Source of the DNA: Mytilus californianus
Taxonomy: Eukaryota
Direction of reading: 5' to 3'
DNA length: 64,000 nucleotides
NCBI RefSeq assembly: GCF_021869535.1
Contig: NW_026262712.1
Location: forward strand, 79,174,001-79,238,000
This document shows, one piece after another, positions 8,399 through 28,677 of the stretch. The position numbers and the translations under genes were made by a program. The first letter of the stretch is position 1, and each line of letters opens with the position of its first letter. The notes below the pieces were generated by a model, which was not told where the DNA came from, made no database searches, and saw only the letters and a list, made by a program, of their open reading frames with translations.

Positions 8399-8440
8399 CG
8401 TCACTGATGACTCCGGTGTAGACAAAACGCGCGTCTGATG
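8399..8440 (+). ncRNA. Degenerate minimal type I hammerhead ribozyme in a retrozyme/Penelope-LTR-like repeat
   Basis: cgtca-CTGATGA-...gtagac-AAAA(for GAAA)-cgcgcGTC-tgatg. Stem I pairs, but the core GAAA and stem II are mutated. Confidence 0.45.
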
Positions 8441-10101: not shown

Positions 10102-10735
10102 GGCGTATGACATTTGCGCCGATTAAAAAAAATATCTTTCAATTGCGCCGATTTTATTCTTTCATTAGCGCCTATTTTATTATTTGTTTTATCACCAGCA
10201 CGGATTCTACATTTGCTCCTATTTACATTTGCATTTTAACACGGGTGAGTTAATATATATGTACACGTACTATACCTAGACGTAATATTGGTAATATCTG
10301 GATATAAACGGTGTTCAGTCACTTTTTTAAAAGTTACTTTTGGTCCATATACTTCGTTGTGACACGATGGATATATTGCACACTGAAACGAGCCGAGGAG
10401 TCAATTCTTTGATCATCGATTGCCGTATATATCGGCAGGTCATAGTCCTGAAATATAATAGCATAGCTTACCGATGTACCATCAAGTCGTGTAAAGCCAG
10501 AGCCACCACGGATTCTGATGGTATGACGGTTATGAGCAACGAAAAAGTCTGTTACAGTAGATTAATCATTCCGTCTAATGTATTATGTTTTCTGATTTAT
10601 TATTTTTATGTTCTGTAAAAAGCTCTTGATAAATAGAAAATAACAGTTACCTGTAATTTACTTGTACACAGTTGGCGCAAATGAAAGACAAAGTCGGCGC
10701 AAGTGAAATGCAGATCGGCGCAAATGCAAAACGCC
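10102..10735 (+). mobile_element. Mutator-like (MULE) non-autonomous element with a FLYWCH-like fragment
   Basis: Inverted ends ggcgtatgacatttgcgccga / tcggcgcaaatgcaaaacgcc. Internal ORF 10340-10618 reads TSRGVNSLIIDCRIYRQ...YRCTIKSCKARATTD, a FLYWCH-type pattern. No clean TSD. Confidence 0.55.
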
Positions 10736-12735
10736 GCTAAATAATATTTATTATCGATCATATCATTTGCCTTCTGGGTATTTCGTGAGTCAATAAAACG
10801 GTTTATTTTGGCTATTCCTACATTTTGAATTTTATAGGTCAAATATTAAGAAATTCATGTAGGAGTTCCGAGAATTATTTTGTAAACAAAGAGATGAAGT
10901 TGGGTTACGTCGGATTATGTTGTAACAACACTTGATTAATTATTCAAGGTAAATACAGGTAAAAATTGTGGAAAAGAAAGAGAATGGATTTTTTTTTTAT
11001 ATTACAATATTTTATCAAATAATTAATTGTATATCACGTTTTGTAAAAAGTACGTAGTATTTGAACAGTATATATCAAATTGAACACATAGTAGGACAAA
11101 ATTTTTATTATGACACAGTATATATATTTCAGTAGCACTAAATTGATAAACATATAGAGAATTCACAAATTCTTAGTCAATGTGCAAGAGGTGAAAAGCA
11201 GCATTAGCTTATTGAATTTGCGTGAGGTGTTCATTTTGAAGTCTTGTTTTCAATGCTAGAAGGATGGGTTGTATGGTAATTGTTTCAACCCATTCATTTT
11301 TTTATTTATTATTTAACCATTAAAATTACATATATTTAAATCGATTTACCCTAAAAAATCAAATTGTAGTCAATATAATTCACCATGATTTTTATATAAA
11401 TTATTATTTATCCTTTACTTTCTACAGGTAAATTTACCTGTTATTTAATTAGACATCTATTGTTCTTTTCATATAGGAATTGGCAGAAAATGAAAATTCA
11501 AAATGTGGGAATAGCCAGAAGACACCCAATAAAACTTGAAATACTTAAAAAAATGAAAAGTATTTCAACAATCGCAAAAAAAAAAACGTGTCAGAGGATG
11601 CCATCAGTATGCGCATACTAGATAGGATTAGAATTTATATAGTTGTAAGCTTCAAAGTTGTCTTCGTGTGCGCTATTAATGGAACCTTGTGTCAATTTAT
11701 AAAAAAAGTTATTTACTCTTATGAATAGTGTTTTTTTTTACAAGTGATAAGTTTTGCCATCCTCAGAGGTTGACAAATATATAAATAAAAAAAAACCTGA
11801 AATCATTATTTTTTACTGTTTCAAAATACTTATGTTTTTTTTGTAAACTGATGAATGTCTTTGTTTGAAATTTGATTAATTGATTGATCTATTGTTTGTT
11901 GCTAAATGTTTAGTGAAAAATAGTACATGCATGTTTAGGACGAGAAAAAATGGGTCGGGTAAGTTTAAATTGCCATTGCAAAACGAGGGTATATTGGAAA
12001 AGAAATGTATCCTTGCAAATGGCCAACTATGTATACGGACCCCTCATAGAATTGTTGCAGCCGTTTTACAATCTCTCTACATGAGGCATTGCCAAACGAA
12101 CGCCCCACTTTGGAAAAGGTTTTACTGCGGATCGGAAGAAGACCTGTAATGACTATATTTCTATTATTTCTCAGTTACCCTTGGTGGAGTTAGGGGGGGG
12201 AGGGGGTTAAAACTTGAATACCCAATAAAAACATTGAACAAACATATGATCCGACAAAAGAAATTTAGTAATCTTATAATTTTATCAATTGTTTCAAATC
12301 ATCCAAATCCTGCATGCAGAAATATTTGTTTGAGCATTGCGAAAGTCGTCGGTGCACTCAAATAGTACTATGTGTGATGTACATTTCATCATGCTTTCAA
12401 CAATAACAATCATATTGTATCGTAGTAGATATGTTACACTTGCGGAGAGTTTAAAACGTCTTTCATATATTTTATGGAAACCTTTTTTATATTGGTATAT
12501 TTTATGCGTTTCTGTCTATTATCATGATTACATGCCATCCCAGTAATAACATCGTTAAGTTTAAAGTACGTTTTCTAAGCATACAATTACCGCTCCTATT
12601 ACGTTCGTTCGTCGAGATACATTCGTTCGTCAATATCCTGGTCATCTCTATTTAAATTTTATGGCTTACCTTTTATTTTGGTCTTTTGGTTAATTAGCTC
12701 CAATGTTTGTTTATATTCAATTGTTGGCTTCGAGG

Positions 12736-12775
12736 ATCACTGAAGAGACATGTTTTGTCGAAATGTGCATCCACA
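12736..12775 (+). ncRNA. Hammerhead ribozyme-like motif with a broken stem I
   Basis: atca-CTGAAGA-gaca/tgtc stem II-GAAA-t gtgc ATC. The 3' strand of stem I (cac) does not pair. Confidence 0.45.
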
Positions 12776-13035
12776 GTCATACAATTGGTACGGTTAATGG
12801 TATTACGTCCTAATAGAGGTTTCTCAACATCTTACGAACGAACGAAAATTGACCTAACTTGACGTAACTTGCCGTAACAAGAAAAGAGGGAGCATTCATT
12901 TATTCCATTATTTTGGACTATCGGCTGTGATCTTCTTCCCTTTGAAATGTCTTTTACATAAAAACAAATATATACATTCTGGATTTTGTAAGACCATTTT
13001 GAGTCGTAGACAAATTACATTGACTTGATATATAT

Positions 13036-13103
13036 ACAAAAGAGGGGCGAGAGATACCAGAGGGACAATCAAACTCATAGATTGAAAACAAACCGACAAC
13101 GCC
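13036..13103 (-). mobile_element. Left part of a Penelope-like 3'-end repeat interrupted by the Polinton-like element
   Basis: Matches the uninterrupted copy at ~51775-51840 (…ctcataaatcgaaaataaactgacaacgcc). Confidence 0.85.
13098..13103 (+). other. Target-site duplication AACGCC (left copy)
   Basis: Identical hexamer at 28334-28339. The uninterrupted paralogous site gacAACGCCatggct is at 51832-51846. Confidence 0.95.
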
Positions 13104-13419
13104 ACACAATATCACACACCTATACCCCCCTCCAAAAAAAAAAAATTTGACCCCCAAAAAATTACCCTCATTTCAAGTAAAAGAGCCCTAAATTTTCATA
13201 AAAAAAAAAGCAAAAAAAAACGCAAAAACACCAAAATTTTCTTACTCCCAAAAAAATTTTTTTTTTACTTTGGAAAAAAACGTTATTAAAAACACCCAAA
13301 AAACAACAAAAAAATTCCAAAAAAAAAAATAAATAAAAAAACCGGGAGAACAGGCGAAGAAAGAATTCTGTGGGATTTAAGAGAAAAAAAAAAAAAATCA
13401 ATTTTTACTTTAAAAAATG
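13104..13419 (+). repeat. Left terminal inverted repeat (316 bp)
   Basis: Starts ACACAATATCACACACCTATACCCCCC. Reverse complement of 28021-28333 apart from about five differences (substitutions and homopolymer lengths). Ends at the ATG at 13417. Confidence 0.97.
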
Positions 13420-13998
13420 AAACAACCTACAGCTCCTGATTTATATCCAGAATTACCTATAGAAGATGGACAAAATTATAGACTACAAAAAATAACAGAA
13501 ATAGAAAAAACATTAATAAATGAGAGAGATAAACGTAAATCACTATACAAAAAATATAAACGCGGAGTTAATGTTACTGATGGTGTTGATACAAGTTTAA
13601 TTTCGACATCTGTTGTTTTAGCTGGTATAGGAATAGCTTTTCCTATCTTACTTCCCATACAAATTGCAGCTGTTGTATGTGGAAGTTTAGGAAGTCTAGT
13701 TAAATTAATTAGAAGAAAGTTGACAACAAAATCAAAAAAACATTATGAAATTAAAACAATGGCAGAATGCAAGTTAAACAGCATAAAAGATTTAATATCA
13801 AAATCTTTAACTGACGGACAGATAAGTGTAGATGAATTTAAACTTATTTTAGATGAATTAGAAAAATTTAATGAGATGAAAAAAAATTAAAAAAAAGTAA
13901 TTTTAAAAAGTTTACCAGATGATGAAAGAAAAAAACTAATTGAGGAAACAGAAAATAGAGTAAAAAACGAATTAAAAAAAAAAATGGAAAATCTTTGA
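13417..13998 (+). CDS. Viral protein with two hydrophobic segments and a helical C-terminus; in-frame TAA at 13888-13890
   Basis: 157-aa ORF with hydrophobic stretch SLISTSVVLAGIGIAFPILLPIQIAAVVCGSLGSLV. The same frame continues past the TAA as KKVILKSLPDDERKKLIEETENRVKNELKKKMENL* to 13998. Confidence 0.8.
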
Positions 13999-14070
13999 TT
14001 TTCTTTAATAAAATAATTTTAGTTGATAACGGAAATCCACCAAACTATGAATCAATTTTTAATTAAATAA

Positions 14071-14205
14071 ATGGATGAAGAAACAAAAGAAAAATTAGTA
14101 AAAAATGTAAAAATAATGTTAAATAAAAAATTTAATTATTTTTATCTTAAGTTGTTTTTAACAGGTTCTTTTTATTGTTTATTATCTAATATTTTAGATG
14201 AATAA
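14071..14205 (+). CDS. 44-aa small viral ORF with one hydrophobic segment
   Basis: MDEETKEKLVKNVKIMLNKKFNYFYLKLFLTGSFYCLLSNILDE*, preceded by TAAATG. Fills the gap exactly up to the next start at 14207. Confidence 0.5.
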   Translation: MDEETKEKLVKNVKIMLNKKFNYFYLKLFLTGSFYCLLSNILDE

Positions 14206-14206
14206 A

Positions 14207-15532
14207 ATGGCTGAAGGAGGTTATGAGTTTGATAATCCTGAGTTTAAAAATAATGATTATGATGATGATTATGAAGAAGAAGAAACGTCTTTTCAAGATG
14301 ATGAAGAGTTTCAAAATAATATAAATAAGGAATTTGAAATATCAAGAGATTTATCAGAAAATGATGTTAAAATTCGTAAAAAAGAAACTACAAAAAAAAT
14401 GATTAAACAATTTTATAAAAAAAATGGTGAAACTATACGTAATGAAGAGGTTTTTTTTGTTGGGGAAAATCATAAGGGAAGACAAATCTTATATGTAAAA
14501 GATGAAAAAGGTAATGATATTGCATTAACATATTACCAAAAAGGAGTATTAAAGTTTTATAAATTTAGCACTCTTCAAAGAGAATACGGTGTTAATTTTG
14601 TCAGGGATGTTTTAGGTGTAGATGATTATAAAATATCTGATAATTTAAGAGAAGGTAGAGCAGGGTTTCAGAGAATGTTAAATGAACTCGATAATATAGA
14701 AATTCCATTACAAGAAATATCTACACAAGAAGAAGGACAAGAATTATTAGAAACAGCAAGTAATGCAGAAACATATGTGAAAGAAATAGAAACTTCATTT
14801 ATTGAACAAGGAACATCTTTAATAAATGAAGAAACACAAACAAAAATGACAAAAAGAGAGATGGATGGTATAATAAAAGCATTTACAACAGCGGAAGATG
14901 AGATTGCAAATAATTTAGCAAAACTGAATGAAACAAATAAAGACTTAGCAAAAGAAAATGCCAAATTAGAACAAGCTAAAGAAGACAATAATAAATTTCA
15001 AATAGATAGAATAAGTAGTCGAATAAGAGAGTTGGAATCTGAGAGAAGTGCAAGACTAGAAGTAATTAATATTAATAAAGAAAAACTACGTAGTCAAGTA
15101 AACAGATTTAAACAAACAATACATAAAATGTTAAACGAAGACAAAACATTAGGTGAAAGAATAAGAACATTATTCAGAGAACAAGGAATAACAATAGTTA
15201 GTGTTTTAACTGCTTTTGGAATGATTATTGGTGTTATTGTTGAAGCATTTACTGGTGGAACTACTTCTCCTTCTCCTTCTCCTTCTCCTCCATCAAAAGG
15301 TGGTGGTGTACAAGACTGGATAAAAAAACAATTAAAAAATCTTGGAAAATTATTATCTTTTCTTGCAGGAAAATTAGCAGCTGCATTACCAGGTATTATA
15401 GGTTCTATTGTTTCTTGGTTATTGTCTGCAACAAAAGACGTAGTAAATTGGTTTGCAAACAACTTATGGGCATTGCTTATTTTAGTTGTTAGTTTATTGT
15501 TTACTGCTGCTAGAGATTATTTGAAAAAATAA
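14207..15532 (+). CDS. Viral coiled-coil protein with an acidic N-terminus and a C-terminal hydrophobic/amphipathic region
   Basis: 441 aa from the TAAAATG start (MAEGGYEFDNPEF). Heptad-rich middle. Hydrophobic segments ITIVSVLTAFGMIIGVIVEAF, LAAALPGIIGSIVSWLL and LWALLILVVSLLF. Confidence 0.85.
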   Translation: MAEGGYEFDNPEFKNNDYDDDYEEEETSFQDDEEFQNNINKEFEISRDLSENDVKIRKKETTKKMIKQFYKKNGETIRNEEVFFVGENHKGRQILYVKDEKGNDIALTYYQKGVLKFYKFSTLQREYGVNFVRDVLGVDDYKISDNLREGRAGFQRMLNELDNIEIPLQEISTQEEGQELLETASNAETYVKEIETSFIEQGTSLINEETQTKMTKREMDGIIKAFTTAEDEIANNLAKLNETNKDLAKENAKLEQAKEDNNKFQIDRISSRIRELESERSARLEVININKEKLRSQVNRFKQTIHKMLNEDKTLGERIRTLFREQGITIVSVLTAFGMIIGVIVEAFTGGTTSPSPSPSPPSKGGGVQDWIKKQLKNLGKLLSFLAGKLAAALPGIIGSIVSWLLSATKDVVNWFANNLWALLILVVSLLFTAARDYLKK

Positions 15533-16749
15533 AGTGCTGTAAATCCTATTACAATACTTACAAATATTATTGCTTGTTTATTATCTTCATGATCTTCATG
15601 TTCAATTTTTTTTATTGGATCTATTTTTGGTTCTTTAGGCTTTTCAGGTTTTATAGGTTCTTGTGGTTTTACAGGTTCTTTTGGTTTAAAATCAACATGA
15701 TCAAAATTTTTATTATTTAAATCATCATTTAACCCAAGTGTTTGATTTTCTGTTGCAATTATAATTTTATTATTATAACCAACAATACTTCCAATTTGTA
15801 AAACCATATCACTGGGAGACATATATAAACCAAGTCCATAAGCATAATCAACTTTACTTCTTGCATATTTTAAAACATTTTCATAATTCGATATCTGGGT
15901 GGGTAAATCGATAGGACTATTTATTACATCTTGTACATTTGCTAAGAATTGTTTTTGTGCATCAAATCCTGTTCCTACTTTTAAAATTTTTGTTTTTGTT
16001 TGAGATTGTGCACCTAACAAAGCCCATACATAAATTTTAATACTTTCATTAATGCGTTCAATACCTGCTTGTGTAAACCCATTAGAGTTATCTAAAATAA
16101 ATGTTGTCCAAGCCATACTTATATCTTTTTCATGCTTAATAGTATCATGAGTACTAAAGAAAGGTCCTTTAATTTTATTTCTTTGTCTATATTCTCCACT
16201 TGGTTTATAATATTGCTCAAAACTTCCTAATCCTTGACATGATGATTCTAGTTTTTGTCTCCAATTTGTATTTGGAGAAATATTAAATTCATCACATAAT
16301 TTCTGATATGCAGCTTTGTCATATGGGTTCTTGTAATAACAGAAAGAAGAATCTGTTGGTAAAGGTGATTTAAGTTCTTTTAAAATTCTGGCAATACAAT
16401 AATATAAATGAAACATATAAAAAGACTTTGTAAGATTTGAAGTATTTTGTATATGATCATTATAAGAAACACCACATCCTGTACTTGCACACCAAACTGC
16501 AAAATTTAACTGACATTGCCACCAATCAAATGAAGAATGAATCCAGGCATTCCATGGTTCGTTAGTGTGTATTGATGGGTTTTGATAGTTTTGAAATAAA
16601 TCAGGAAAAGCTGTTTTAAAGTTCTCTTTTTGATTTACAAATATCGTTTGATTTACAAGATTTGTTTTTAATTGATGATCTTTTTCAGAATATTTAATAC
16701 CTGGATTATATGAAACATTAGGATTATATTTAAATTCTTTTGTTATCAT
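15517..16749 (-). CDS. 410-aa viral protein of unknown function with a C-terminal membrane anchor
   Basis: Globular-looking body (WWQCQLNFAVWCASTGCGVSY), Pro/Lys/Glu linker (KPKEPVKPQEPIKPEKPKEPK), then AIIFVSIVIGFTALYFF at the very end. Confidence 0.85.
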   Translation of the reverse strand: MITKEFKYNPNVSYNPGIKYSEKDHQLKTNLVNQTIFVNQKENFKTAFPDLFQNYQNPSIHTNEPWNAWIHSSFDWWQCQLNFAVWCASTGCGVSYNDHIQNTSNLTKSFYMFHLYYCIARILKELKSPLPTDSSFCYYKNPYDKAAYQKLCDEFNISPNTNWRQKLESSCQGLGSFEQYYKPSGEYRQRNKIKGPFFSTHDTIKHEKDISMAWTTFILDNSNGFTQAGIERINESIKIYVWALLGAQSQTKTKILKVGTGFDAQKQFLANVQDVINSPIDLPTQISNYENVLKYARSKVDYAYGLGLYMSPSDMVLQIGSIVGYNNKIIIATENQTLGLNDDLNNKNFDHVDFKPKEPVKPQEPIKPEKPKEPKIDPIKKIEHEDHEDNKQAIIFVSIVIGFTALYFFK

Positions 16750-16764
16750 TTTTTTATATTAAAA

Positions 16765-17406
16765 ATGTTTTATACTATTTCAAATATTGATAATACAATA
16801 AACTTAGAACAATACATAAATAACAGAAATGGAAATAAACGTATTGGTTTGAAATTTATAAGATACAGCATAGGTTGGTATAATGTTTATCATGGGTTTA
16901 TAACAAAAACCGGAGAGGAACAGCAAAGGATTATGAATGGTTATTATAGTTTTCAACAAATGGTGGATGAATTTCAAAAAGAAAATATTGTATTATCCGT
17001 AAATGAAGCAAATGGTATCGCTTCATTAAACACTACTACTGAGTTAAGGATAAGTAAGGGTTTGGGAAATATGTTAGGGTTTAATAATAAACGTAAATTC
17101 GAACCTAATGAATTACATTATGGAAACAAATTTGTGGATTTTGCTATCCATAAATCATTATATATCCATTTGGAACAAGTTAGCACTTCTCATAATTATC
17201 TTGATGGTAAGCCAAGTAAATTATTAGCTGTTATTCCAGTTGAAAATAAAGAGTTTGGTGAAGTTATAACAGCGAGATTTGAGCATCCGGAATATAAGTG
17301 TTTAGTAAATGATGTTATAACAGAATTGAAATTAGAAATAAGAGATGAAAATAATAACAAGATAATTAATCATTTACCAATTAATTGTGTTTTAGAAGTT
17401 ATATAA
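16765..17406 (+). CDS. Putative minor capsid protein (penton, single jelly-roll)
   Basis: 213 aa with Polinton penton-type motifs GWYNV, LGNMLGF, LLAVIPVENKEFGEVI, PEYKCL and LEIRDENN. Located upstream of the major capsid gene. Confidence 0.75.
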   Translation: MFYTISNIDNTINLEQYINNRNGNKRIGLKFIRYSIGWYNVYHGFITKTGEEQQRIMNGYYSFQQMVDEFQKENIVLSVNEANGIASLNTTTELRISKGLGNMLGFNNKRKFEPNELHYGNKFVDFAIHKSLYIHLEQVSTSHNYLDGKPSKLLAVIPVENKEFGEVITARFEHPEYKCLVNDVITELKLEIRDENNNKIINHLPINCVLEVI

Positions 17407-17419
17407 TTTATTTAATAAA

Positions 17420-17943
17420 ATGAGCATACTTGGTGTCAAAAAAAAAACGTAGAAAAAGAAATATTAAATATGAAGAGTGAGCTTCAAACAATGGATACTA
17501 AGGATAAAAATTTACATCGGAGTGTCGCTGCCCTAAGCATCAGAGTTTTAAATGTTGAAAATATAGTTGGTAATATTAAAAATAAACCAGACAGAAAAAT
17601 AATAAGTATATATGCTGGAATTGATGGTCCAATACATGGAAATAAAAAGTTTAATTTTGGTGTTGGTGGTGGTTATTATGTAATGAACTTTCCAGGACAA
17701 ATATTGGGTATTAGTTTAGTAAGTTTAAGAACAAACACAGATATTATAGCCATTAAGATGATTGTTAATGATAAGTCAACTAGTTACAAAATGAGTTTGG
17801 GTAATGGTGTCACACACGGTTTTAATAACTTTTATACACCTTTTGAAGTTAAGGCTGGAGATTTAATAAGTTTTATTAGTATGACTAATAATTATACATG
17901 TATCAATACTCTAGTATCAGTGATAATTGAATTATTTTTATAA
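17420..17943 (+). CDS. Putative fibre/spike-like protein (short coil plus beta-rich head); homopolymer frameshift near the 5' end
   Basis: 157-aa ORF from 17470. An upstream TAAAATG at 17420 (MSILGVKK..NVEKEILN) joins in frame if the A10 run at 17438-17447 were A11 or A8. The C-terminal part has alternating beta-type and Gly-rich motifs. Confidence 0.55.
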
Positions 17944-17961
17944 CAAATTTAATCCTTAAAA

Positions 17962-19227
17962 ATGTCGGCATACGGAAACAAATTAAATCCTTACAGAAAA
18001 ATAAGAGAACCCCGTGGTGTGAAAGGTATTCGTCAAAGTGTATCAATAACAAATAATCCTTCAACTATTGATCAAAATCAACAGCTATTAGTGAGATTCC
18101 CCAATCTAAGCAATAATGATGTTATTGTTCCTGGAACAACCAGATTGGCATTTGAAATAGAACTCACATCTACAGACGACAATGCAACTATATATCAAAA
18201 CATAGGAAGAACAATAGTTAAAAAAACAACAATTCGTATAAGTGGAAATGAAATTATGTCAATTGATGATAGTGATATTTATCATTTTTATGTTGATTTA
18301 TGGAAATCTACATCTGAACGTTTAAATATGGCATACCAAGGAATTGGTGAAACAAACATGTTAAAACACAGAGTTGGTGCAGATAATAAAGCATCAGACA
18401 TAGGTGATGAAGCAATTGCAACTGCATATGGTGCAAGATTTTGTATCCCACTTGATTTTGAACTATTAGAAACTCATATGCCTTTTTATCAAGCAGGTCT
18501 TGGTGATAGACTTGAATATGAACTTACATTTAATAATTATAGCAATGTTATTAAATCAACAGATACATCTGCAAGTTATACAATCAAAAACATTTGTTTA
18601 GAATTTGATATGGTTACTGATGCAGAATTAGCAAGACAGATAAGACAACAAGTTAATGGTAAGATGGTTATTTTGTACGATAGAATACTAAGACATAGAA
18701 AAATAACCAAAAACAAATCTGATACATTGTGGAATATAAATTTAAATGTTCCAGCTAGAAGTATGAAAGGAATTCTAATGTTGTTCGAAGATCCTGAAAG
18801 AACAAGTACCGAAACTTATTATAATCCTAACATAACAAAAGTAGAAATGACAATAGAAGGTGTTCCAAATCAACTATACAGTCAAGGAATGAAAGCATAT
18901 CAACAATGGGATGAAATAAATAAATTCTTTGCTTTAAATTCAAAAAGAAATAAAACAACAGAAGAAGTTTTAAAGGATTTAAATTTATCCTATACAACAT
19001 TAGAAAAATATCTTACAACTAATTATGCATTATGGTTAGATTTACGTTCAACAGATGACAACTCATTACACGGTTCAGGTAGAAGAATTGAAAATGCTTC
19101 TGAAGGTATTACTATCCAAATAACTAAAACAGCAGGAGCAAATAAATTAATAAATGTTTATCTGTTTGTTATACAAGATGCACAAATTAATTTTGAAGAT
19201 GGAAGATTTAAAGAAGTTAATTACTAG
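17962..19227 (+). CDS. Putative double jelly-roll major capsid protein
   Basis: 421 aa, beta-rich pattern (LLVRFPNL, RLAFEIEL, FCIPLDF, LEYELTF, ICLEFD) and a C-terminal VYLFVIQDAQINFEDG strand typical of this fold. Size and position next to the penton fit. Confidence 0.8.
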   Translation: MSAYGNKLNPYRKIREPRGVKGIRQSVSITNNPSTIDQNQQLLVRFPNLSNNDVIVPGTTRLAFEIELTSTDDNATIYQNIGRTIVKKTTIRISGNEIMSIDDSDIYHFYVDLWKSTSERLNMAYQGIGETNMLKHRVGADNKASDIGDEAIATAYGARFCIPLDFELLETHMPFYQAGLGDRLEYELTFNNYSNVIKSTDTSASYTIKNICLEFDMVTDAELARQIRQQVNGKMVILYDRILRHRKITKNKSDTLWNINLNVPARSMKGILMLFEDPERTSTETYYNPNITKVEMTIEGVPNQLYSQGMKAYQQWDEINKFFALNSKRNKTTEEVLKDLNLSYTTLEKYLTTNYALWLDLRSTDDNSLHGSGRRIENASEGITIQITKTAGANKLINVYLFVIQDAQINFEDGRFKEVNY

Positions 19228-19610
19228 TAATTGCTGTCTTGACGAACAAGTTCTGCAATCTTATTCCTTTCGGTAATCAATTCACTTATTTTTATTTCCA
19301 ATGTAGTTTTTTCTTCATTCTCGTATGTTCTTTTCGTTGTCAATTTTTTGAGTTTAGTCTTTGCACTAACTTTTTGTCTTGTTAATCTCAACCAAATCCG
19401 TCTTTTGTTTTTATCACCAAAATCTTCTTTAGCTTTGTTTATTCTATCGGTCAACAATTCAATTTCCTTTTTTGTACTGTTTATTTCTGTATCTTGTAAA
19501 TTTATCGTATTATTATGTTTTGCTAACAACGTTTCTAATTTTTCTAATTCATCCGACACTTTAACTAAATTACATCTTCTCAATTCAGATTCCATTTTGA
19601 ATATGAACAT
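19224..19610 (-). CDS. Basic coiled-coil viral protein, unknown function
   Basis: 128-aa ORF, heptad-rich; its stop overlaps the capsid gene stop. The true start may be the ATG at 19595. Confidence 0.65.
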   Translation of the reverse strand: MFIFKMESELRRCNLVKVSDELEKLETLLAKHNNTINLQDTEINSTKKEIELLTDRINKAKEDFGDKNKRRIWLRLTRQKVSAKTKLKKLTTKRTYENEEKTTLEIKISELITERNKIAELVRQDSNY

Positions 19611-19633
19611 GTCACAATTAGGTAGTTAAGATA

Positions 19634-19856
19634 GTGTTTACTGCAACTAAGTAAGTGTTTACTGCAACTAAGGAGTTGTTTATTGAAACTAAGTAAGTGT
19701 TTACTGCAACTAAGTAAATGTTTACTGCAACTAAGGAGTTGTTTACTGTATCTAAGTAAGTATTTATTGAAACTAAGTAAGTGTTTACTGCAACTAAGGA
19801 GTTGTTTACTTTTGTAAAAGTGTAACTAAGTAAGTGTTTACTGCAACTAAGGAGTT
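19634..19856. repeat. 21-bp minisatellite, ten units with core GTTTACTGCAACTAAG
   Basis: TRTTTAY heptamers start at 19635, 19656, 19677, 19698, 19719, 19740, 19761, 19782, 19803 and 19835. Confidence 0.95.
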
Positions 19857-20366
19857 AATCAATAATCCAATTACAGAACTGTTGATATTTTTACATTCCA
19901 TCTATCATTGTATCACTTACAATTTAAAAATTCAGTCATAGTATTGATTATTTGAGTAAAGATAATAAAATGGAGAGAATTATCAATTATCATTTAATTC
20001 AATACTAGTTCTCATCTTCTCTTATTAATGTGATAAAATGCTCAATGGGGTGTATTGTTATTCTTTGTGATAATAAGTTAGTAAATATTAAAGTATTGAT
20101 GTGAAGTGTTGTATTTTATTGAAATAATCATTGCTGTATCATTTGATCCTTGGGATCATTATTATTTAAAATGGATAACTCATTAAAATTGAAAGAAACT
20201 TGATATTTTATAGCCTTGATAACATATTAAGCAATTGAGGCATTTAAATTTCTTTTGTTATATAGGTTTTATAAAAGTGTTTCTAAAGTAAGTGTTTAAT
20301 TCAATAGGATATGACTTTTAAATAAACTAAATCGATCATTGTAAATATTTACAGGTACCTAGAGAT

Positions 20367-21185
20367 TTAAAACTTAGTCATCTGTAATTCTTGTTCATAA
20401 AATCCACCTTTAATATCTTCGCCTTTTAAATCAATTATTCTATAAGTAACAGGGTTTGTATTTAAAACTTTTTCAATTACAAATATTTCTTTGGTCCAAC
20501 GAGTAGTATAACCCTTTTCAAATTTACCTTTCTTTTTTGTTATTCTTACTCTAACACCTACTTTGAATTTAGGTTTTTTAATTTTCTCTTCCTTTTCTGG
20601 ATATAAATTTTTATACACTGTTAATTCATTTTTTAATTTACTTGCTTGAACAGGTGTCATTTTAATTGAAGAATGTACTGTATTATTATAATTTTTAACT
20701 AATTTATCTAATATATCATAATATTTTAAAGTTTCATTAGCAGTAAAGTATTTAAACATATGTTGTTTCATTGTACCTATCCAGCGTTCCACCACGCTGC
20801 TCTTTTCCTCATTCTCAGTTGAATATAACTTTATGTTATTATCTTTTAACAATTCTTTTACTTGTCGATTATAAAATTCAGATCCTTTATCCGACCAAAT
20901 ATACATTGGTTTTCTTTCTTTAAATAATGTTTTAAATGCTTCACTCACTGCTACTCCTGTTTTATTTTTCAATGGAATCAACCAACCATATTTACTAAAA
21001 ACATCTATAACTGCTAATAAATATTTATAGTGTTTATTTTGTTTTGAATATTGTTGTATATCTATCAAATCAACTGCCCATGTTTGATCTATTGAATTAA
21101 CATAAACACGTCTTTTAGGAAAAGATTTTATAACTCTATGATGTAATTCATCTGCTAATTTATTTGTTAGATTTGTTTTAGACAT
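20367..21185 (-). CDS. INT: Retroviral-type (rve, DDE) integrase of Polinton type
   Basis: WAVDL (D), IWSDKGSEF (D) and SSVVERW (E), plus the Polinton C-terminal region KFKVGVRVRI…FEKGY…WTKEIF…FYEQELQ. Confidence 0.95.
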   Translation of the reverse strand: MSKTNLTNKLADELHHRVIKSFPKRRVYVNSIDQTWAVDLIDIQQYSKQNKHYKYLLAVIDVFSKYGWLIPLKNKTGVAVSEAFKTLFKERKPMYIWSDKGSEFYNRQVKELLKDNNIKLYSTENEEKSSVVERWIGTMKQHMFKYFTANETLKYYDILDKLVKNYNNTVHSSIKMTPVQASKLKNELTVYKNLYPEKEEKIKKPKFKVGVRVRITKKKGKFEKGYTTRWTKEIFVIEKVLNTNPVTYRIIDLKGEDIKGGFYEQELQMTKF

Positions 21186-21215
21186 TTTTAAGTAACTAAA
21201 ATGTTTTCTTAAAAA

Positions 21216-24200
21216 ATGGAGGCAAAAAAGGATAAAATTTTATCCAAGCGAGAAGATTCATATAAACTTGTTTTGACAAAAGAATATAAACATAAAGCAA
21301 GTATTTATGTATTTAATTATAAAATTAGTCTAAAGGATGAAAAACAAGAAACATTTACAAATGCTTTTGACCACATGGTAGACTATTCCATAAAAGATTA
21401 CCCTAATGGAAGAATTAAAATAGTACCTATTCATGAAATCATAATTACTAAACATAAAAGCTGGCCTATAAGAACATATAATACAGTTAAAAAGTTATTC
21501 ATGGATCAAATGGAAAGATTATTAAATAGTGCTGAAGAATTAAATTTAGAAGAAGTTATTTTTGAAGTTACTATTATACCCAATAAAAGAGGAAAAGGTA
21601 AAGCTTTAAAAATATTAGATGTCATAAATAAAAGAAGTATTATCAAAATAAAAAATGATGATACAATATGTTTATCAAGGGCAATTGTAACTTCTTTAGC
21701 TTCAAATAAGTTATTAAAAGATTTTACAGATTCTCAATTAAAACACATTAAAGAGGGTAGACCATTACAAAAAAGAGTTGCTGAAAATTTACATGAACAA
21801 TCAGAAGTAGAAATAAAAGAAGAAGGAAATGATTTAGACGATTTAAAAGCTTTTGAAAATTATTTTAATATTAGGATAATTGTTTTTGCATCAAATAGTA
21901 CAGAATATATTGTATATGGTGGTAATGAAGAATATAATGAACAAATATATTTATATTATCATGATGAACACTTTGACACTATAACAAATATAACAGGATT
22001 TTTAGCTAAACGTAGGTTTTGTAAAGTATGTTTAATTGGTTATACTGAACAACATACATGCAAAGATAATACAGTAACAACTATCAGAAAACAACATATT
22101 TGTGATAAATGTAACAAAACATATACAGGTAAAAATCACAAATGTGGTGAAAAAATATGTTTAATATGTTATGAAAAATACACGGAAAGTAATGAAGAAC
22201 ACTTATGTTATATGAAACCATCAGTACCAAAACAAGTAAAAAATAATTAATATATATATTTTGATTTTGAAGCAAATCAAGAAACAGGAATACATATAAT
22301 GAATTTTTGTATAGCTTACGATTTAAAAAATATTTATTGTTTTAAAAATAACTATGTAAAAGTATTTAAATGTGATTTCAATATTGATAATTTAAACTTG
22401 TTAGAATTAGACATAGATGATTGTTTTAGTGATGTAGAAAAAATTAAATATGAAACAAATTCTGTAATAGACAACTTTTGTAAATATTTCATAAGAGATA
22501 AATTTAAAGACTACACTTTTATTTCACATTATGGAAAAGGTTATGATATGCAACCGATTTTAGGATACATTGTAAAAAATAAAATTGAACATAACATAAT
22601 TTCTTCTGGACTAAAATTAACAGCTATATTTATTAAAGGAATAAATTTAAGATTCATAGATTCTATAAATTTTACATTATGTGGATTAGCTGCTTTCCCA
22701 AAAACATTTGGATTTGTGGGTAACAAAGGTTATTTTCCACATTATTTTAATACAACAGAGAATCAAAAATATGAGGGAATTTATCCTAATAAAGAATATT
22801 TTGGTTATAATACTATGACAATTAAAAATAAAGAATTATTTGATGAATGGTATAATAAAGTTAAAGAAAAAGAATTTAAATTCTATAAAGAAATATTTTA
22901 TTATTGTCTATTGGATGTTTTAATTCTTGCCAAAGGTTGTACCTTATATAGAAAATTATTTTTAAATATAACCAATAATTGTATCGATCCATTTCAATAT
23001 ATTACAATTGCTCAATGTTGTACAAAAATATTTAAAACATTAATGTTGACAAATGAAACAATTGGAATTCACAAAAAGATGACAATTAAAGAAGTACATT
23101 CACAAAAATCAATACAATGGTTAGAGTATATTTCTTTAGAATATAATATAATGATTCAACATGCTAAAAGGGGAGGTGAAAAGAAATTATTCATTAATAA
23201 TAAATGTTATAAAGTCGATGGTTATTATTATGATAGAGAAAATAAAATGCGGAATGTTTATGAATTTTTTGGATGTTATTGGCATGGATGTACAAAATGT
23301 TATAGTCCTGAAGAAATATGTAAAAAAGATAGAAATAAAAAAACTATGAAAGAGTTATATAACCAAACTAAAGAAAGACTTAAAACTATTGAAGATTATC
23401 TAAAACCAAATGTAAAAATTCATACAATATGGGAATGTGAGTTTGATCAACAAAAATATCCTGAAGTTGATCCACATTTAAAACCTATTGATAAAAGAGA
23501 TGCATTTTATGGAGGAAGAACAGAAACTATTCAATTATACAATAATCTTTCTGATTTAAAAGGTAGATATGTAGATTTTTGTTCTCTGTATCCATCAGTA
23601 AATAAATATTGTAAATATCCTATAGGACATCCTATTACATCTACAGAAATATCTGTAGATGATTATATAAAAAATAATTATTTCGGAATAATGAAATGTA
23701 AAATATTACCACCTAAAGGATTGTATCACCCTGTTTTACCTTATAAACAATTAACTAGTGATAATACACATAAATTACTTTTTGGATTATGTAGAACATG
23801 TATGAATAAAATATCTTTTAAATGTAAACACATAGATGATCCTACTTTAAATAAACATGATAAAATACATGAAATAAAAAGATGTAAAGAATGTAAAAAT
23901 ATTAAAAATGAAAAATGTATACATTCTGATGAGGAAAGAGTTATAGTAGGTACATGGTCTACAATAGAAATAGATAAAGCAATAGAAAAAGGTTATGAAT
24001 TACAAAAAATATATGAACTAGAACATTTTGAAAAAACATCTACAGATATATTTAAACTTTATGTAGATACGTTTATGAAATATAAACAAGAAGCTTCAGG
24101 ATGTAAATGTGATCCTAAATATTGTAAAAATGATTGTAAAAACGATAAAGAATGTAAAACAAAAATACAATACATTATAGATAATACTGCTTATGATCTA

Positions 24201-24974
24201 GATATTGACAAAGTTAAGTACAATTCAGGATTAAGATTTATAGCTAAAATATGTTTAAATAATTTATGGGGACATTTTGGTATGAGAGATAATTTTACAC
24301 AAAAAGAATATTGTTTTACTTTAGAACATATAACTAAAATAGTATTTAATGAAAAATATAAAGATATAAGTACTATGATATTAGATGAAGATATTGTTTT
24401 AACAGAATATAAAAATAAAGAAGAATACTCTAAACCTAATCCAAGTGTAAATGTTTATATAGCTTTGTTTACAACAGCACATGCTAGATTAAAATTATAC
24501 GAACTATTGGATATTCTTCAAGAAAGAGTTTTATACATGGATACAGATTCTTGTATTTATAATGATGATGGTTCTGAAGCTTGTAAAAAAATAGAAAGTA
24601 TGATGGGAAATAAATTAGGAGATTTAACAGATGAAATTGTTTCAAAACATAACGCTAATCATATAAAACAATTTATATCTGCTGGTCCAAAAGATTATTC
24701 TATGAAACTAGATACAGAAAAACTAGTTAGCTGTTGTAAAGGTGTTAGATTAAATGCTGAAGTTGAAGAAAAGATTACATTAGATAAAAAAATAAAAATA
24801 GTTACTGATGAAAATGAAAAATATGAAACTGTTCAATATGACAACATAAAAATAGAAAAAGATCATCAACTTAAAACAGTTAAACAAGTTAAAGCTTATG
24901 ATTATATGTTTGATAAAAGAATGGTATGTTATGAAAATGAAAATCTAATTAGAAGTTTTCCTTATGGATATTAA
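21216..24974 (+). CDS. pPolB: Protein-primed family B DNA polymerase; one reading frame interrupted by TAA at 22248-22250
   Basis: Track ORFs 21216-22250 and 22299-24974 are in the same frame, and ExoI YIYFDFE directly follows the stop. ExoII SHYGKGYD, ExoIII YCLLDV, motif A DFCSLYP, motif B KICLNNLWGHFG, motif C YMDTDS. Confidence 0.95.
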
Positions 24975-25021
24975 AAAATATATAATTTAAATTTTTATTT
25001 TAAAAAATAAAAGACTAAAAA

Positions 25022-25270
25022 ATGATTGAAGCTTATACTGAGAAAGATGATCCTGACGCTAAAGTTATATTAGGAAGAATAATGTTATCAGATTATCAGA
25101 TATGTTGTTTAAGAGATGATGGAGAATGTCCTTTGACTCCAAAACAAATGGAAGTAATGGAAAAGTTTGATGGTAAAAAGTTATCTAAGTTTCCTCCTGG
25201 TTGGGATGCTTTTATTAGACCAGATAAAGTTTATGAATATGTTTTTGAAAAACCATGTCCTGAAATTTAA
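25022..25270 (+). CDS. 82-aa viral ORF, unknown function
   Basis: TAAAAAATG start just after PolB. Complex amino-acid composition, unlike a shadow ORF. Confidence 0.65.
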   Translation: MIEAYTEKDDPDAKVILGRIMLSDYQICCLRDDGECPLTPKQMEVMEKFDGKKLSKFPPGWDAFIRPDKVYEYVFEKPCPEI

Positions 25271-25452
25271 TTTTTTATTTTATTTTATTTCTCTATACCC
25301 CTAAAAACAGAAAAAGTACAGGAATAGTACATACTTTTTTCTGCAATTTTGCTGTTTTTACCAGGAAAAGTACAGAAATTAGGGACTCTAATTTTTATCA
25401 TTTTTTTCTTATTTTTCCAATTTTTCATACAAACGTAAATTGTATTTATTTT

Positions 25453-25873
25453 TTATTTTAATTTCCAAACAATAAAACCAGTTAATGTCATACCACCAAC
25501 AACAAATGCAATCTCTCTATTTTTCTGGTCTTCTGATGGAGTATAAAAATCACTTAATGTAGGTTTAGGTGATAATGAAGTTAATTTTTTTATTCGTGAC
25601 ACGATAGTATAGTTTCATTGCCTGGTCAACATCATCAAAAGTCTGAACCGCATGATGTTCCTTTTGTAATTGTTCATTTATAAAATCTAATCTTTGTATT
25701 CTTTTTTTATTCCATTCTGATTGTGCTTTTTCTAATTTTTCTATAGCTTTATCATGTCTTATTTTCTCTTCATTTGCATTACTACCCATATGTGAAAATA
25801 AATAATTACTCCCTGAAAATGCAAAAGCATTTGTTATTGCCCCACCAAGCATCATTGTTAAAGCACTTGCCAT
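25453..25873 (-). CDS. Viral protein with N- and C-terminal hydrophobic segments flanking a coiled coil; one-base homopolymer frameshift
   Basis: Track ORF ends at 25565. Removing one base from the 7-nt run at 25585-25591 extends it with KKLTSLSPKPTLSDFYTPSEDQKNREIAFVVGGMTLTGFIVWKLK*, giving 139 aa. Confidence 0.75.
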
Positions 25874-25889
25874 TTTATAAAAACAAAAA

Positions 25890-26126
25890 TTACTTCATAA
25901 TATCAGCAGGTATAATACCTTGCTTAATCAACATATCTTTTGTTGCTATCGCAAGTAATATATCAATGGATAACATTACAACATCATTCATATTAAAATC
26001 CACTTTTGGTGCTGGCCTCCTTAATACCTTTTTACCTATTTCTGCATATCCAACTGTTAACAATGTTTCCACTCCAGCATGATATAACATATTTGCTATT
26101 TGTTTTCCGTCTTTTTGAGTTGTCAT
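25890..26126 (-). CDS. 78-aa small hydrophobic viral protein
   Basis: TAAAATG start, tightly packed in the minus-strand block after the ATPase. Segment VVMLSIDILLAIAT. Confidence 0.7.
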   Translation of the reverse strand: MTTQKDGKQIANMLYHAGVETLLTVGYAEIGKKVLRRPAPKVDFNMNDVVMLSIDILLAIATKDMLIKQGIIPADIMK

Positions 26127-26141
26127 TTTAATGTACTAAAT

Positions 26142-26540
26142 TTAATTAAATTCAAAAGGATCAATTTCTTTCTTTTGTTTTTCTGGTTTTGTTATTTCTT
26201 TAATCATTCTTTCTGGTTTCTTACTTTGGTTGTAAAAAAACAATCCCAATCCAACAATACTTATAGGAAAAAGTACAAATTTGTAATCAACTAGGGAACT
26301 GGAGTGTTTTTTGACAGAAGGGATATGTTCGTTTGATTCATAATCTGTTTCTGTATCAGAATCTTTTGTTATTTGTTTGATTTTTGAATTTTCTTTTTTT
26401 AATTTTTCCACTTCTTTTTTTCTCAATTCTGCATTTCTTATTCTTACTTCTGCACCTTTCTTACCAGCAGCTACTCTTTTTGGGTCTTTTGGTTTGGGTT
26501 TTTTAAATACTTCTTTTTGTTCAGGATTTTCATTCATCAT
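26142..26540 (-). CDS. Basic viral protein with a single transmembrane segment
   Basis: KPKDPKRVAAGKKGAE basic motif, a coil, then FVLFPISIVGLGLFFY. Confidence 0.75.
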   Translation of the reverse strand: MMNENPEQKEVFKKPKPKDPKRVAAGKKGAEVRIRNAELRKKEVEKLKKENSKIKQITKDSDTETDYESNEHIPSVKKHSSSLVDYKFVLFPISIVGLGLFFYNQSKKPERMIKEITKPEKQKKEIDPFEFN

Positions 26541-27168
26541 TTTTTATGTCATTATTTTCATCTTTTTTTCGGAAATCGAGCGAAGCGAATGGTTCAATAT
26601 GTCTTGCTGTTGTTAATATTGCAGTAAAAGGAGCAAGATACATTCCATATCTATAGTACAGTTCACAACATGTATTAGTTAAAGCATTATTGATAAAAGG
26701 ATCTTCCTCTAAGTCTTGTATTAAAATTGGTGGATTAACAACTTTGAAAAACTTTGATACACCTATGACATATAAATTTATAAAAGAGTTTCCTAATGTC
26801 TTGGTCATACTAGCTCCCAATCTTGCTTCATATTTACAGTATAGTTTGTTTATTTGCTCTGTTGTCATTTTATCAATATCTGACAGTTGTAATTCTTTAC
26901 CCAGATATTGTTTACTACTCCCACCAGCAACAACGGATGATAATCTTTCGCGTTTTTTTTCTTGAAGGGAACCGTTCACTTCGCTCGCTTCATCATCAAT
27001 ATTTATGTTTTCCACAATTTGCTCGCTTAATAATTCTTCAGCATTCATTTTATACGTTTCAAAAAACGGATATAATTTATTTTTAACTTTAAAAAAATTA
27101 AATACAACATATCCAACCAATGATAAGACTGCAGTGTTTGTTGCAATTGTTAGTATTTCCAACAGCAT
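26530..27168 (-). CDS. 212-aa viral protein with an N-terminal membrane anchor
   Basis: ILTIATNTAVLSLVGYVVFNFF at the N-terminus, followed by a helical domain (LYCKYEARLGASMTKTLG…LYYRYGMYLAP). Confidence 0.75.
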   Translation of the reverse strand: MLLEILTIATNTAVLSLVGYVVFNFFKVKNKLYPFFETYKMNAEELLSEQIVENINIDDEASEVNGSLQEKKRERLSSVVAGGSSKQYLGKELQLSDIDKMTTEQINKLYCKYEARLGASMTKTLGNSFINLYVIGVSKFFKVVNPPILIQDLEEDPFINNALTNTCCELYYRYGMYLAPFTAILTTARHIEPFASLDFRKKDENNDIKNDE

Positions 27169-27180
27169 TGCTTTTTTTTA

Positions 27181-27356
27181 TTGCTTATTTTGGTTAAATT
27201 ACTTAAGAATTACTTATTTTGGTTAAATTACTTAAGAATTACTTAAGCATTACTTAAGCATTATTTTGCTTATTTTGGTTAAAAATTTTGGTTAAATTAC
27301 TTAAGAATTACTTAAGCATTACTTAAGCATTACTTAAGCATTACTTGAGAATTGCT
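27181..27356. repeat. 11-bp minisatellite (TTACTTAAGCA/TTACTTAAGAA) interspersed with TTTTGGTTAAA units
   Basis: TTACTT starts at 27199, 27210, 27228, 27239, 27250, 27297, 27308, 27319, 27330 and 27341. Confidence 0.9.
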
Positions 27357-27363
27357 AAAAAAA

Positions 27364-28023
27364 TTAATCAAGTAACCAATAATCAGTAGGTTGATCTGTC
27401 TTTAATATTAATTTACGATGTTTCTTTTTTTTAAGTTCTTCCTTTATTCTTTGTCTTTCTTCCAAAGTAGGAATAACATCATTTTCTCTTAGGCAATTAT
27501 CAAAACTATCTCTATCTTTTGTGTAGAACATGCATAACCATTTTGTTTGTTCTCTTAAATCTTTTAAAACAGAGTTGTATCTCTGTGAAATGACCCACAC
27601 TGATTGTTCCGCATGTCTTCCTGAAAATGCAAGCTCGGACAGCATATCTTTTTTCTTTGTTAGTTCTTTTGTTGCACTGCAGTCATCAATGATATATAAT
27701 GTTGGATGACCAGCATATTTTTTAAAGAACATTCTTAGTAGTTCTTGTAGCTTCTCTTCTTCTTTGACAATAGGATTAACAATTATTAGATTTTTTGTTT
27801 TTGGTTTTCTAACATCACCAATCCATTCACGATTTTTGTATGCTTTGTTCCATTGAATTGTTGGACAAAGTATGACTATATGTTTAAAAACCCCACTATA
27901 TTCTTTTTCTAATAAATCAAGAACAAACTCCGTTTTCCCACACCCAGTTTGTCCACATATAATAGCACAATGTGGATATTTTGGTAATTCGGAGTGTATC
28001 TCGCTCCGCTCGTTCGATTCCAT
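27364..28023 (-). CDS. A32-like genome-packaging ATPase (FtsK-HerA superfamily)
   Basis: Walker A GQTGCGKT, Walker B LYIIDD, and the A32 signature FSGRH…VWVISQ. Start taken as the TAAAAATG at 28023, since the upstream codons lie in the TIR. Confidence 0.93.
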   Translation of the reverse strand: MESNERSEIHSELPKYPHCAIICGQTGCGKTEFVLDLLEKEYSGVFKHIVILCPTIQWNKAYKNREWIGDVRKPKTKNLIIVNPIVKEEEKLQELLRMFFKKYAGHPTLYIIDDCSATKELTKKKDMLSELAFSGRHAEQSVWVISQRYNSVLKDLREQTKWLCMFYTKDRDSFDNCLRENDVIPTLEERQRIKEELKKKKHRKLILKTDQPTDYWLLD

Positions 28024-28333
28024 TTTTAAAATAAAAATTGATTTTTTTTTTTTTCTCTTAAATCCCACAGAATTCTTTCTTCGCCTGTCCTCCCGGTTTT
28101 TTTATTTATTTTTTTTTTGGAATTTTTTTGTTGTTTTTTGGGTGTTTTTAATAACGTTTTTTTCCAAAGTAAAAAAAAAAATTTTTTGGGAGTAAGAAAA
28201 TTTTGGTGTTTTTGCGTTTTTTTTTGCTTTTTTTTTTATGAAAATTTAGGGCTCTTTTACTTGAAATGAGGGTAATTTTTTGGGGGTCAAATTTTTTTTT
28301 TTTGGAGGGGGGTATAGGTGTGTGATATTGTGT
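28021..28333 (-). repeat. Right terminal inverted repeat (313 bp)
   Basis: Reverse complement of 13104-13419; ends …GTGTGATATTGTGT. Confidence 0.97.
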
Positions 28334-28677
28334 AACGCCATGGCTAAAAAATAAAGAGACACACAGACAAATAATAATACACAACACACAACATAGAAAA
28401 CTAAAGACTAAGCAACACGAACCCCACCAAAAACTGGGGGTGATCTCAGGTTCTCCGGAAGGGTAGGCAGATCCTGCTCCACATGTGGCACCCGTCGTGT
28501 TGCTTATGTTATTACAAATCCGGTAAATAGTCCAATTCGGTAGTAGGTCACATTCGTGAAAAGGGAAGGGTGTTGTAGTTACGACATAAGGAACATATCC
28601 GATATCATCTGTGAAACGGTTATTCCATAACGGTCAACCAACTCGTGATTGCGTCCGTAAAATTTACGAAAGGATGA
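28334..28677 (-). mobile_element. Right part of the interrupted Penelope-like 3'-end repeat (starts with TSD AACGCC)
   Basis: Continues collinearly with the copy at 51835-52170 (atggctaaaaa…gcaacacgaaccccacc…ggtcaaccaactcgtgat). Confidence 0.85.

Follow-up and report, generated by a model that had tools for sequence, protein, structure and literature searches.

A lipid membrane is a component of the virion in most varidnavirians (PMC13598248), and the PRD1 packaging ATPase docks on a conduit made of P20 and P22, both integral membrane proteins (PMC4267777). No Maverick-Polinton virion has been observed so far (bioRxiv 10.64898/2026.06.19.733378). The lack of a protease is typical of Polinton-like viruses (PLVs) (PMC4642659), and some ATPases of bivalves, octocorals and hydrozoans group with Aquintoviruses in a study that devotes one sentence to these ATPases and in whose text the word membrane is absent (bioRxiv 10.64898/2026.06.19.733378). 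PLV-type elements constitute 40.8% of 107,631 bivalve viral regions (bioRxiv 10.1101/2025.04.19.649669), so the question of a membrane in such viruses bears on a farmed animal group. Here we describe a Polinton-like provirus of 15.2 kb at 13104-28333 of a 64,000-nucleotide stretch of Mytilus californianus DNA (contig NW_026262712.1; hereafter the window). The element carries a set of conserved hydrophobic proteins linked to its capsid and packaging genes. A virion with an internal membrane is the best reading of the element, and we give it about an even chance of being correct.

Hydrophobicity was measured as the best Kyte-Doolittle (KD) 19-mer with a cut-off of 1.6, and p values were obtained from 1000 shuffles within each protein. 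A stricter rule called for a 17-mer with at most one charge. All membrane calls are based on hydropathy. Six of the 17 open reading frames (ORFs) of the window, genes A, C, D, K, L and M, reach 1.6, and 5/17 satisfy the stricter rule. With the broken gene J counted, the number rises to 7 of about 16 genes (44%), and five to six of the seven are convincing single- or multi-pass candidates. The seven genes and their best 19-mers are as follows.

13417..13890, plus strand: gene A, 157 amino acids (aa), hydrophobic hairpin of two helices between coiled flanks (2.28, p 0.008; second segment 1.69)
14198..15532, plus strand: gene C, 444 aa, candidate protein for entry or DNA delivery (2.43, p<0.001; three segments)
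15517..16749, minus strand: gene D, 410 aa, folded domain, Pro-rich linker and C-terminal tail anchor (1.81, p 0.044, formed by the last 19 residues)
25453..25873, minus strand: gene J, a helical middle between two hydrophobic ends, frameshifted near 25570-25590 in the window copy (25453 piece 1.45, p 0.003; upstream 25565-25873 piece 1.36, p 0.05)
25890..26126, minus strand: gene K, 78 aa, two-helix hydrophobic protein, 49-86% identity in four loci (1.93, p 0.089)
26142..26540, minus strand: gene L, 132 aa, one transmembrane-like segment, found in 5/5 aligned copies (1.75, p 0.001)
26530..27168, minus strand: gene M, 212 aa, N-terminal anchor, basic residues and a conserved domain of ~120 aa (1.87, p 0.10)

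A preliminary description of this DNA had stated that about half of the viral genes encode membrane proteins. The count by genes comes slightly below half, and the count by ORFs gives only 6/17. The ORFs it named are all present at their places, the one given at 14207 starting from the second ATG of ORF 14198-15532. The hydrophobic character it ascribed to the 25453 ORF is borne out by the relatives, as gene J has two hydrophobic 17-mers of 1.45-2.23 in all four loci where it is intact, although both window pieces lie under the cut-off. Gene J is a single open frame in L002, L008, L010 and L011 and encodes 140-141 aa in L002 and L010. One further ORF was dropped as a membrane protein. It fails both hydropathy rules and gave no tblastn match in the 20 loci described below.

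14071..14205, plus strand: 44-aa ORF, doubtful gene with no transmembrane call (KD 1.34, p 0.066)

The hydrophobic genes flank or adjoin the following capsid and packaging genes.

16765..17406, plus strand: gene E, 213 aa, whose size and position make it a candidate penton (minor capsid) protein
17470..17943, plus strand: gene F, 157 aa, candidate fibre or spike protein, matching the C-terminal part of a 281-aa ORF of L008
17962..19227, plus strand: major capsid protein, 421 aa, likely of the double jelly-roll type, with a weak Capsid_N match in relatives
27364..28023, minus strand: A32-type DNA-packaging ATPase, 219 aa (Pfam PF04665, E 1.9e-14)

The arrangement of these genes was compared in 20 metagenome loci fetched by the capsid protein. 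An ATPase match is found in 14/20 loci and lies directly behind the capsid gene in 14/14, whereas replication genes separate the two in the window. As the preliminary description noted, four minus-strand genes (26530, 26142, 25890 and 25453-25873) follow the ATPase, and the synteny across relatives that it named as a check is observed: the order ATPase-M-L-K-J recurs in 4/5 informative loci, that is, L002, L008, L010 and L011 among the five loci extending far enough beyond the ATPase. Gene L is assigned in those four loci by position, and its alignment relies on the basic motif, the hydrophobic segment and the tail. The four loci encode capsid proteins 66-86% identical and range in GC content from 0.26 to 0.59. 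The start of M is also visible at the end of locus L005. On the other side of the module, C and D lie tail to tail and are followed by E in L001, L008, L010, L018, L019 and L020. Gene E is conserved next to D and F in L001, L008, L010, L013 and L018-L020, and in L031 the capsid gene adjoins the C-D pair, which again lies tail to tail. The loci carry other polymerases and integrases, the replication genes being swapped freely around the core. The membrane genes therefore travel with the capsid module and not with the replication module.

Locus L010 is a near-complete relative of 13 kb (1-13235) with 133-nt inverted repeats at its ends. Its 13 ORFs comprise A, the fibre gene, E, D, C, the capsid gene, the ATPase, M, L, K, J, a polymerase that differs from that of the window, and one small ORF. 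All seven hydrophobic genes are intact in it, and 7/13 of its ORFs pass the cut-off; of the non-replication genes common to the window and L010, 7/11 are hydrophobic. Neither an integrase nor a protease was found in L010 by tblastn and Pfam scans of the 13 ORFs, and L010 may be a non-integrating form. A perfect 24-bp hairpin is located at 134-192 of this locus, outside the matched repeat.

Membrane proteins generally account for some 20-25% of proteins. The share in L010 is above both of these baselines (p 0.007-0.024). Under the same rule, hydrophobic ORFs number 16/31 in PRD1, 6/21 in PM2 and 8/23 in a tectivirus contig, and 2/27 in phi29, 1/19 in a PLV-like contig and 0/6 in a Polinton fragment. 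The window exceeds phi29 (Fisher p 0.04), and L010 exceeds phi29, the PLV-like contig and the Polinton fragment pooled (p 2e-4), a small set in which the lipid status of two members is unclear. The hydrophobic share is thus in the range of PRD1 and PM2 and not of the PLV-like and Polinton contigs.

The hydrophobic segments are well kept among homologues. Searches with C, D and M found 1687, 623 and 314 homologues in all, and segments were counted in the full-length proteins, selected by length, among the 120 matches listed per family (150 for the capsid). The segment is kept in 82/82 homologues of C, at the very C end in 84/99 of D, and at the N end in 76/94 of M. A segment is present in 0/52 full-length capsid proteins, which served as a control. 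Among the named sources are four Mytilus species, Mactra and, from lucinid clams, symbiont bins. Many of the closest matches are from Mytilus, and the 444-aa protein C is 100% identical to a Mytilus californianus protein record. The lucinid symbiont-bin homologues are probably host DNA. Homologues filed under bacterial metagenome-assembled genomes (MAGs) of Saprospiraceae and Thiodiazotropha (L031; P0106, P0305-P0310) are probably animal-virus contigs binned with symbionts. In GTDB, the capsid protein had no match and D matched one short MAG contig.

Transcription was assessed in one stranded RNA run, sampled at ~6%, from which 2071 reads were placed, many of them on flanking repeats; several copies may contribute reads. 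Depth is 4.7-13.7 over the right block, on the ATPase side, and 2.1-12.2 over the left or capsid arm, in the direction expected of the genes. The integrase and polymerase are covered at a depth of at most 0.55, far under both arms. Six reads start at 14041, ~30 bases past a polyadenylation-type hexamer, and the transcript of gene A may have its 3′ end here. As the element is transcribed in mussel material, particles can be sought.

The hydrophobic proteins of the ATPase-linked block are small. An N-terminal hydrophobic, signal-like stretch is present in 55/55 aligned M proteins and is followed by a net charge of +2.7. Gene L combines a basic N-terminal motif, the membrane segment and a short C-terminal tail of Asp/Asn-Pro-aromatic type, both ends being conserved; its basic motif might possibly bind DNA. 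Behind J, L002 contains at 4126-5901 a strongly hydrophobic 52-aa ORF and a second A32-like ATPase, 360 aa long (E 2e-7), whose N terminus carries a membrane anchor.

The left arm encodes A, C and D. Gene A shares 40-49% identity with ORFs of L010 and L020, and its C end is shorter than that of the 200-207-aa relatives. Its two-helix layout appears SLATT-like, but family membership is not borne out by a profile match, no SLATT family being found at E up to 5 in Pfam and none in PADLOC. Gene C consists of a small N domain, a helical hairpin (214-313) and hydrophobic helices at ~330-348, 393-411 and 419-437. Its structural model has a pLDDT of 63.7, and the three hydrophobic or amphipathic helices of the membrane part are of low confidence. 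The membrane part is the best-conserved region of the protein, with block identities of 0.77-0.91 over the three hydrophobic stretches compared with 0.44-0.60 in the first 220 residues. The fold search with C returned only generic helical bundles (best Z 12.8, a designed bundle) and does not show a relationship to translocators; the match to the IpaB N-terminus (Z 9.3, rmsd 1.6, 104 aligned residues) is tied with many others, and the ESM Atlas gave no usable match.

The model of D (pLDDT 86.8, pTM 0.81) contains a 345-residue domain, the Pro-rich linker and the tail helix. Cysteine 87 is nearly invariant, and cysteines 92 and 152 are fully so. Foldseek matched the model to nothing among viral models or in the PDB at E<=0.001, and the best Z among 48,161 chains was 3.4. 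An absent or weak structural match would not by itself establish a new fold. A GT-D or glycosyltransferase assignment was rejected because the profile match (E 0.0005-0.0016) is far below the cut-off and the model has no such structural match. In every relative that spans the three genes, D lies on the strand opposite to the neighbouring C and E. For the seven hydrophobic proteins together, Pfam, PHROGs, NCBIfam and PADLOC gave no curated-level match. Sequence searches of solved structures returned nothing.

In the preferred reading, the seven membrane or hydrophobic proteins would build a lipid vesicle that lines a double jelly-roll capsid, with penton and fibre spikes outside, a PRD1-like plan rebuilt from unrelated proteins. 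M, L, K and J would reside in the vesicle membrane, their soluble parts exposed to the cytosol, and would direct assembly and provide the ATPase with a conduit like that of P20 and P22 in PRD1. D, being tail-anchored, may link membrane to shell or act as an entry factor. C, with its coiled coil and C-terminal hydrophobic helices, could open or fuse with the host membrane and release the DNA, and A would be a SLATT-like pore protein. Lipid content, location in the virion and ATPase binding are what we infer from the observed linkage, hydrophobicity, conservation and transcription. A membrane-linked packaging vertex had been put forward in the preliminary description, and it is gene order that would suggest one; phmmer found no similarity of the window or L010 membrane proteins to P20 or P22. 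Direct binding of the ATPase by the M-L-K-J block is possible but rather unlikely.

The orientation of a membrane protein is given by the positive-inside rule. A signal-like N-terminal stretch is found in 0/40 C and 0/53 D sequences, and in M the anchor precedes the positive charge, so the soluble parts of C, D and M should face the cytosol. Such an arrangement suits a membrane under the capsid better than a budding envelope. The fibre and penton candidates, together with the lack of signal peptides on C and D, likewise favour an internal membrane over an envelope. Where the preliminary description allowed for either an internal-membrane or an enveloped particle, lipid is plausible from the conserved block, the segments and the share like that of PRD1 and PM2, and the envelope is the less favoured form.

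Several points weigh against an internal membrane. The window share of 6/17 is not above the generic share of membrane proteins (binomial p 0.11-0.23), and the eukaryotic PLV and Polinton comparison consists of two contigs, both of unclear lipid status. Compared with the membrane proteins of PRD1 and PM2 by phmmer, the seven proteins gave a best E of 0.07 or worse. Membrane-active accessory genes already occur in related viruses of the non-enveloped type (PMC8502044; PMC12220804). The degraded locus L019, one of the five informative loci, has no block behind its ATPase. Gene K, described earlier as weakly hydrophobic, is hydrophobic by score but does not form a clean transmembrane helix: its best segment includes 2-3 charged residues in 4/5 copies, the window copy among them, and is below threshold in the fifth. 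K is membrane-associated rather than clearly transmembrane. An N-x-S/T sequon in D is invariant (53/53) and would suit a lumenal domain if used. Finally, the D region yields antisense reads only, at a depth of 3.5-5.4 compared with at most 0.07 in the sense direction; sense transcription may be silenced or confined to a narrow time.

A naked, lipid-free capsid is the main alternative, and we regard it as unlikely though well worth weighing. C, A and K would then be packaged lytic or pore proteins for endosome escape, as is protein VI of adenovirus, and M, L, J and D would be non-structural, anchoring assembly sites or serving release. Adintoviruses encode three membrane-active classes, GasderminX, PLA2X and cupiennin (PMC8502044), and the two-helix SLATT proteins of PLVs have been proposed to act in endosomal escape (PMC12220804). 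With these genes known, the contrast with Polintons drawn in the preliminary description was too sharp. The coiled hairpin of C, followed by amphipathic and hydrophobic helices, has the layout of a pore-forming translocator. Fibre and penton candidates exist, and no phospholipase was matched in Pfam among the window or L010 ORFs, hence another lytic agent would be required. Pfam gave no gasdermin match either. However, seven hydrophobic genes among 11 shared non-replication genes exceed the needs of one entry function, and their order with capsid and ATPase is fixed across hosts, unlike that of patchy accessory genes. In its hydrophobic share, too, the element is closer to PRD1 and PM2 than to the PLV-like and Polinton contigs.

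It is improbable that the capsid buds at the nuclear, endoplasmic reticulum or plasma membrane and so acquires an envelope or vesicle coat on its outside. D would be the surface protein of such a particle, and M, L, J and K would act as matrix or in egress. The large folded domain of D, with its invariant cysteines, single sequon, Pro-rich stalk and C-terminal anchor, agrees with such a role, and an integrating virus, which would replicate in the nucleus, requires an exit route. Yet both D and C are devoid of the signal-like stretch, D has no match to a fusion-protein fold beyond its anchor helix, and a tail-fibre-like spike indicates an exposed capsid. The last alternative takes the hydrophobic ORFs as relics or chance features of an element whose present movement is that of a transposon only. 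It draws on the broken J, the broken polymerase region and the short A of the window copy and on IMG/VR, where capsid, polymerase, D, M and A queries found no relative and the ATPase alignment gave only weak matches to 7 other viruses. It is very improbable given segments kept by hundreds of homologues, a full set of intact hydrophobic genes in L010, where no integrase was found, and transcription on the coding strand of all genes except D.

The identity of the core genes is supported to different degrees. The 421-aa ORF is likely the capsid protein, with a probable double jelly roll. Its family includes 360 clusters at E<=1e-30, and the Pfam Capsid_N model, built for nucleocytoplasmic large DNA viruses (NCLDVs), is matched below the curated cut-off by 13/50 family members (best E 1.7e-5). 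Phage_Capsid_P3 is matched by 0/50 members, the capsid profile gave no alignment to PRD1 P3 (hhalign probability 0.2%), and a sequence search of solved structures returned no match. Gene E has no family match in Pfam and other profile libraries. The L010 gene at the position of F matches phage tail fibres (PF03906, E 1e-11). The ATPase has no tblastn match among 50,697 phage records; in other copies its gene has extra short insertions. No peptidase was matched in Pfam among the 17 window ORFs or 13 L010 ORFs, and the element contains no unassigned stop-to-stop frame >140 aa. The remaining features within the element are listed below.

19224..19610, minus strand: 128-aa charged ORF, no counterpart found in relatives
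19633..19810: 21-bp tandem array, 8.5 copies
20367..21185, minus strand: RVE (retroviral-type) integrase, 272 aa (Pfam PF00665, E 2e-11)
21216..24974, plus strand: protein-primed B-family DNA polymerase region (Pfam PF03175, E 1.2e-31), composed of a 344-aa ORF and an 891-aa ORF with an in-frame stop between them
25022..25270, plus strand: 82-aa ORF, no counterpart found in relatives
27180..27353: 11/22/29-bp tandem array between the ATPase and M

The element is bounded by inverted ends and a 6-bp target duplication.

13098..13103: left copy of the target-site duplication, 6 bp, identical to the six bases at 28334-28339
13104..13345: left terminal inverted repeat, 242 nt, 97% complementary to 28092-28333
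28092..28333: right terminal inverted repeat, 242 nt, partner of 13104-13345
28334..28339: right copy of the target-site duplication, 6 bp, pairing with 13098-13103

It is gene-dense and AT-rich, with a GC content of 0.22-0.31 compared with ~0.30-0.36 outside. Empty-site joints occur in reads, 133 reads of one run skipping the whole element. Decay of the window copy is slight and is seen in the frameshift in J, the in-frame stop in the polymerase region and the short A. At the J break, 3/4 read runs disagree with the window, so the break may have arisen in assembly or be peculiar to this copy. Short GC-rich motifs lie within and between genes of these AT-rich elements, at 26577-26590, 26966-26993 and 28001-28017 of the window and at 123-156, 3604-3646 and 4073-4115 of L002; they are possibly a tiny mobile or regulatory repeat.

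The insertion site (13040-13104 and 28334-28700) is a very-high-copy, transcribed host repeat whose depth summed over contigs is far above that of the element. Several kb outside the element, the flanks 9810-12850 and 30310-32135 mirror each other with inverted matches of 72-96%, which suggests an older inverted duplication or paired repeat copies. Host tandem arrays with a unit of ~260-290 bp are located at 39240-41900, 54120-56600 and 61350-63980.

The element shares with Polintons, Mavericks and adintoviruses (Polintoviricetes) the inverted ends, 6-bp duplication, protein-primed PolB, RVE integrase, ATPase, capsid genes and a size of ~15 kb. It differs from them in its seven conserved hydrophobic genes and in giving no match to a cysteine protease (adenain/Ulp1), phospholipase or gasdermin; without the Polinton protease, it is therefore not a canonical Polinton. 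Five motifs of its families had 0 matches in the part of the PMC8502044 supplement that was accessible. As in Polinton-like viruses (PMC4642659), a minimal capsid-penton-ATPase module without protease is accompanied by a phage-like fibre and a SLATT-like two-helix gene. The animal host, the RVE integrase in most copies and the share of 1/19 in the PLV-like contig set the element apart. The Aquintovirus-like PLVs of Bivalvia, Octocorallia and Hydrozoa resemble it in the bivalve host, the A32-type ATPase and a variable replication module, and they too fall outside the usual protease-bearing Maverick-Polinton pattern (bioRxiv 10.64898/2026.06.19.733378). The lineage of the element may be that animal group.

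No description of this membrane module, or of a lipid-lined particle in this group of small animal DNA viruses, was found in the literature searched, which comprised open papers and preprint main texts. The accessible part of a coral survey (PMC11131425) does not use the word membrane, and the accessible parts of PMC11296320, PMC13598248, PMC6260650 and 10.1101/2024.03.18.585575 describe no such module. Tentatively, and with a probability we place somewhat below even, the loci represent a widespread lineage of animal viruses, 13-15 kb in size, whose virion would resemble that of tectiviruses, have an internal membrane and do without a protease. The packaging vertex would be embedded in the membrane, and the entry protein would have a new fold. 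If so, an animal virus of 13-15 kb in which 7/11 core non-replication genes are hydrophobic would possess a very small eukaryotic toolkit for viral membranes. It would offer a minimal system for viral membrane building in an animal cell, and its 410-aa D protein is a target for structural genomics.

PRD1 and PM2 are like the element in genome size, the lack of a protease, an ATPase beside small single-pass membrane proteins and the hydrophobic share. They are unlike it in that their membrane proteins show no sequence similarity to those of the element, its capsid profile does not align to P3, its ATPase has no phage match and its host is eukaryotic. Mriyaviruses, Zoraviruses and other Nucleocytoviricota are linked to the element by the weak match of its capsid protein to the NCLDV Capsid_N model. 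Internal membranes occur in NCLDVs. Small relatives carry Mriya48, an envelope-protein homologue (bioRxiv 10.64898/2026.06.19.733378). These viruses differ from the element, for which Pfam scans of the window and L010 ORFs gave no VLTF2/3 or HUH match. The element would, if its virion does contain a membrane, be a living model of the ancestor, itself with a membrane, from which Polintons and giant viruses descend, and would bear on how the tectivirus membrane relates to the giant-virus membrane.

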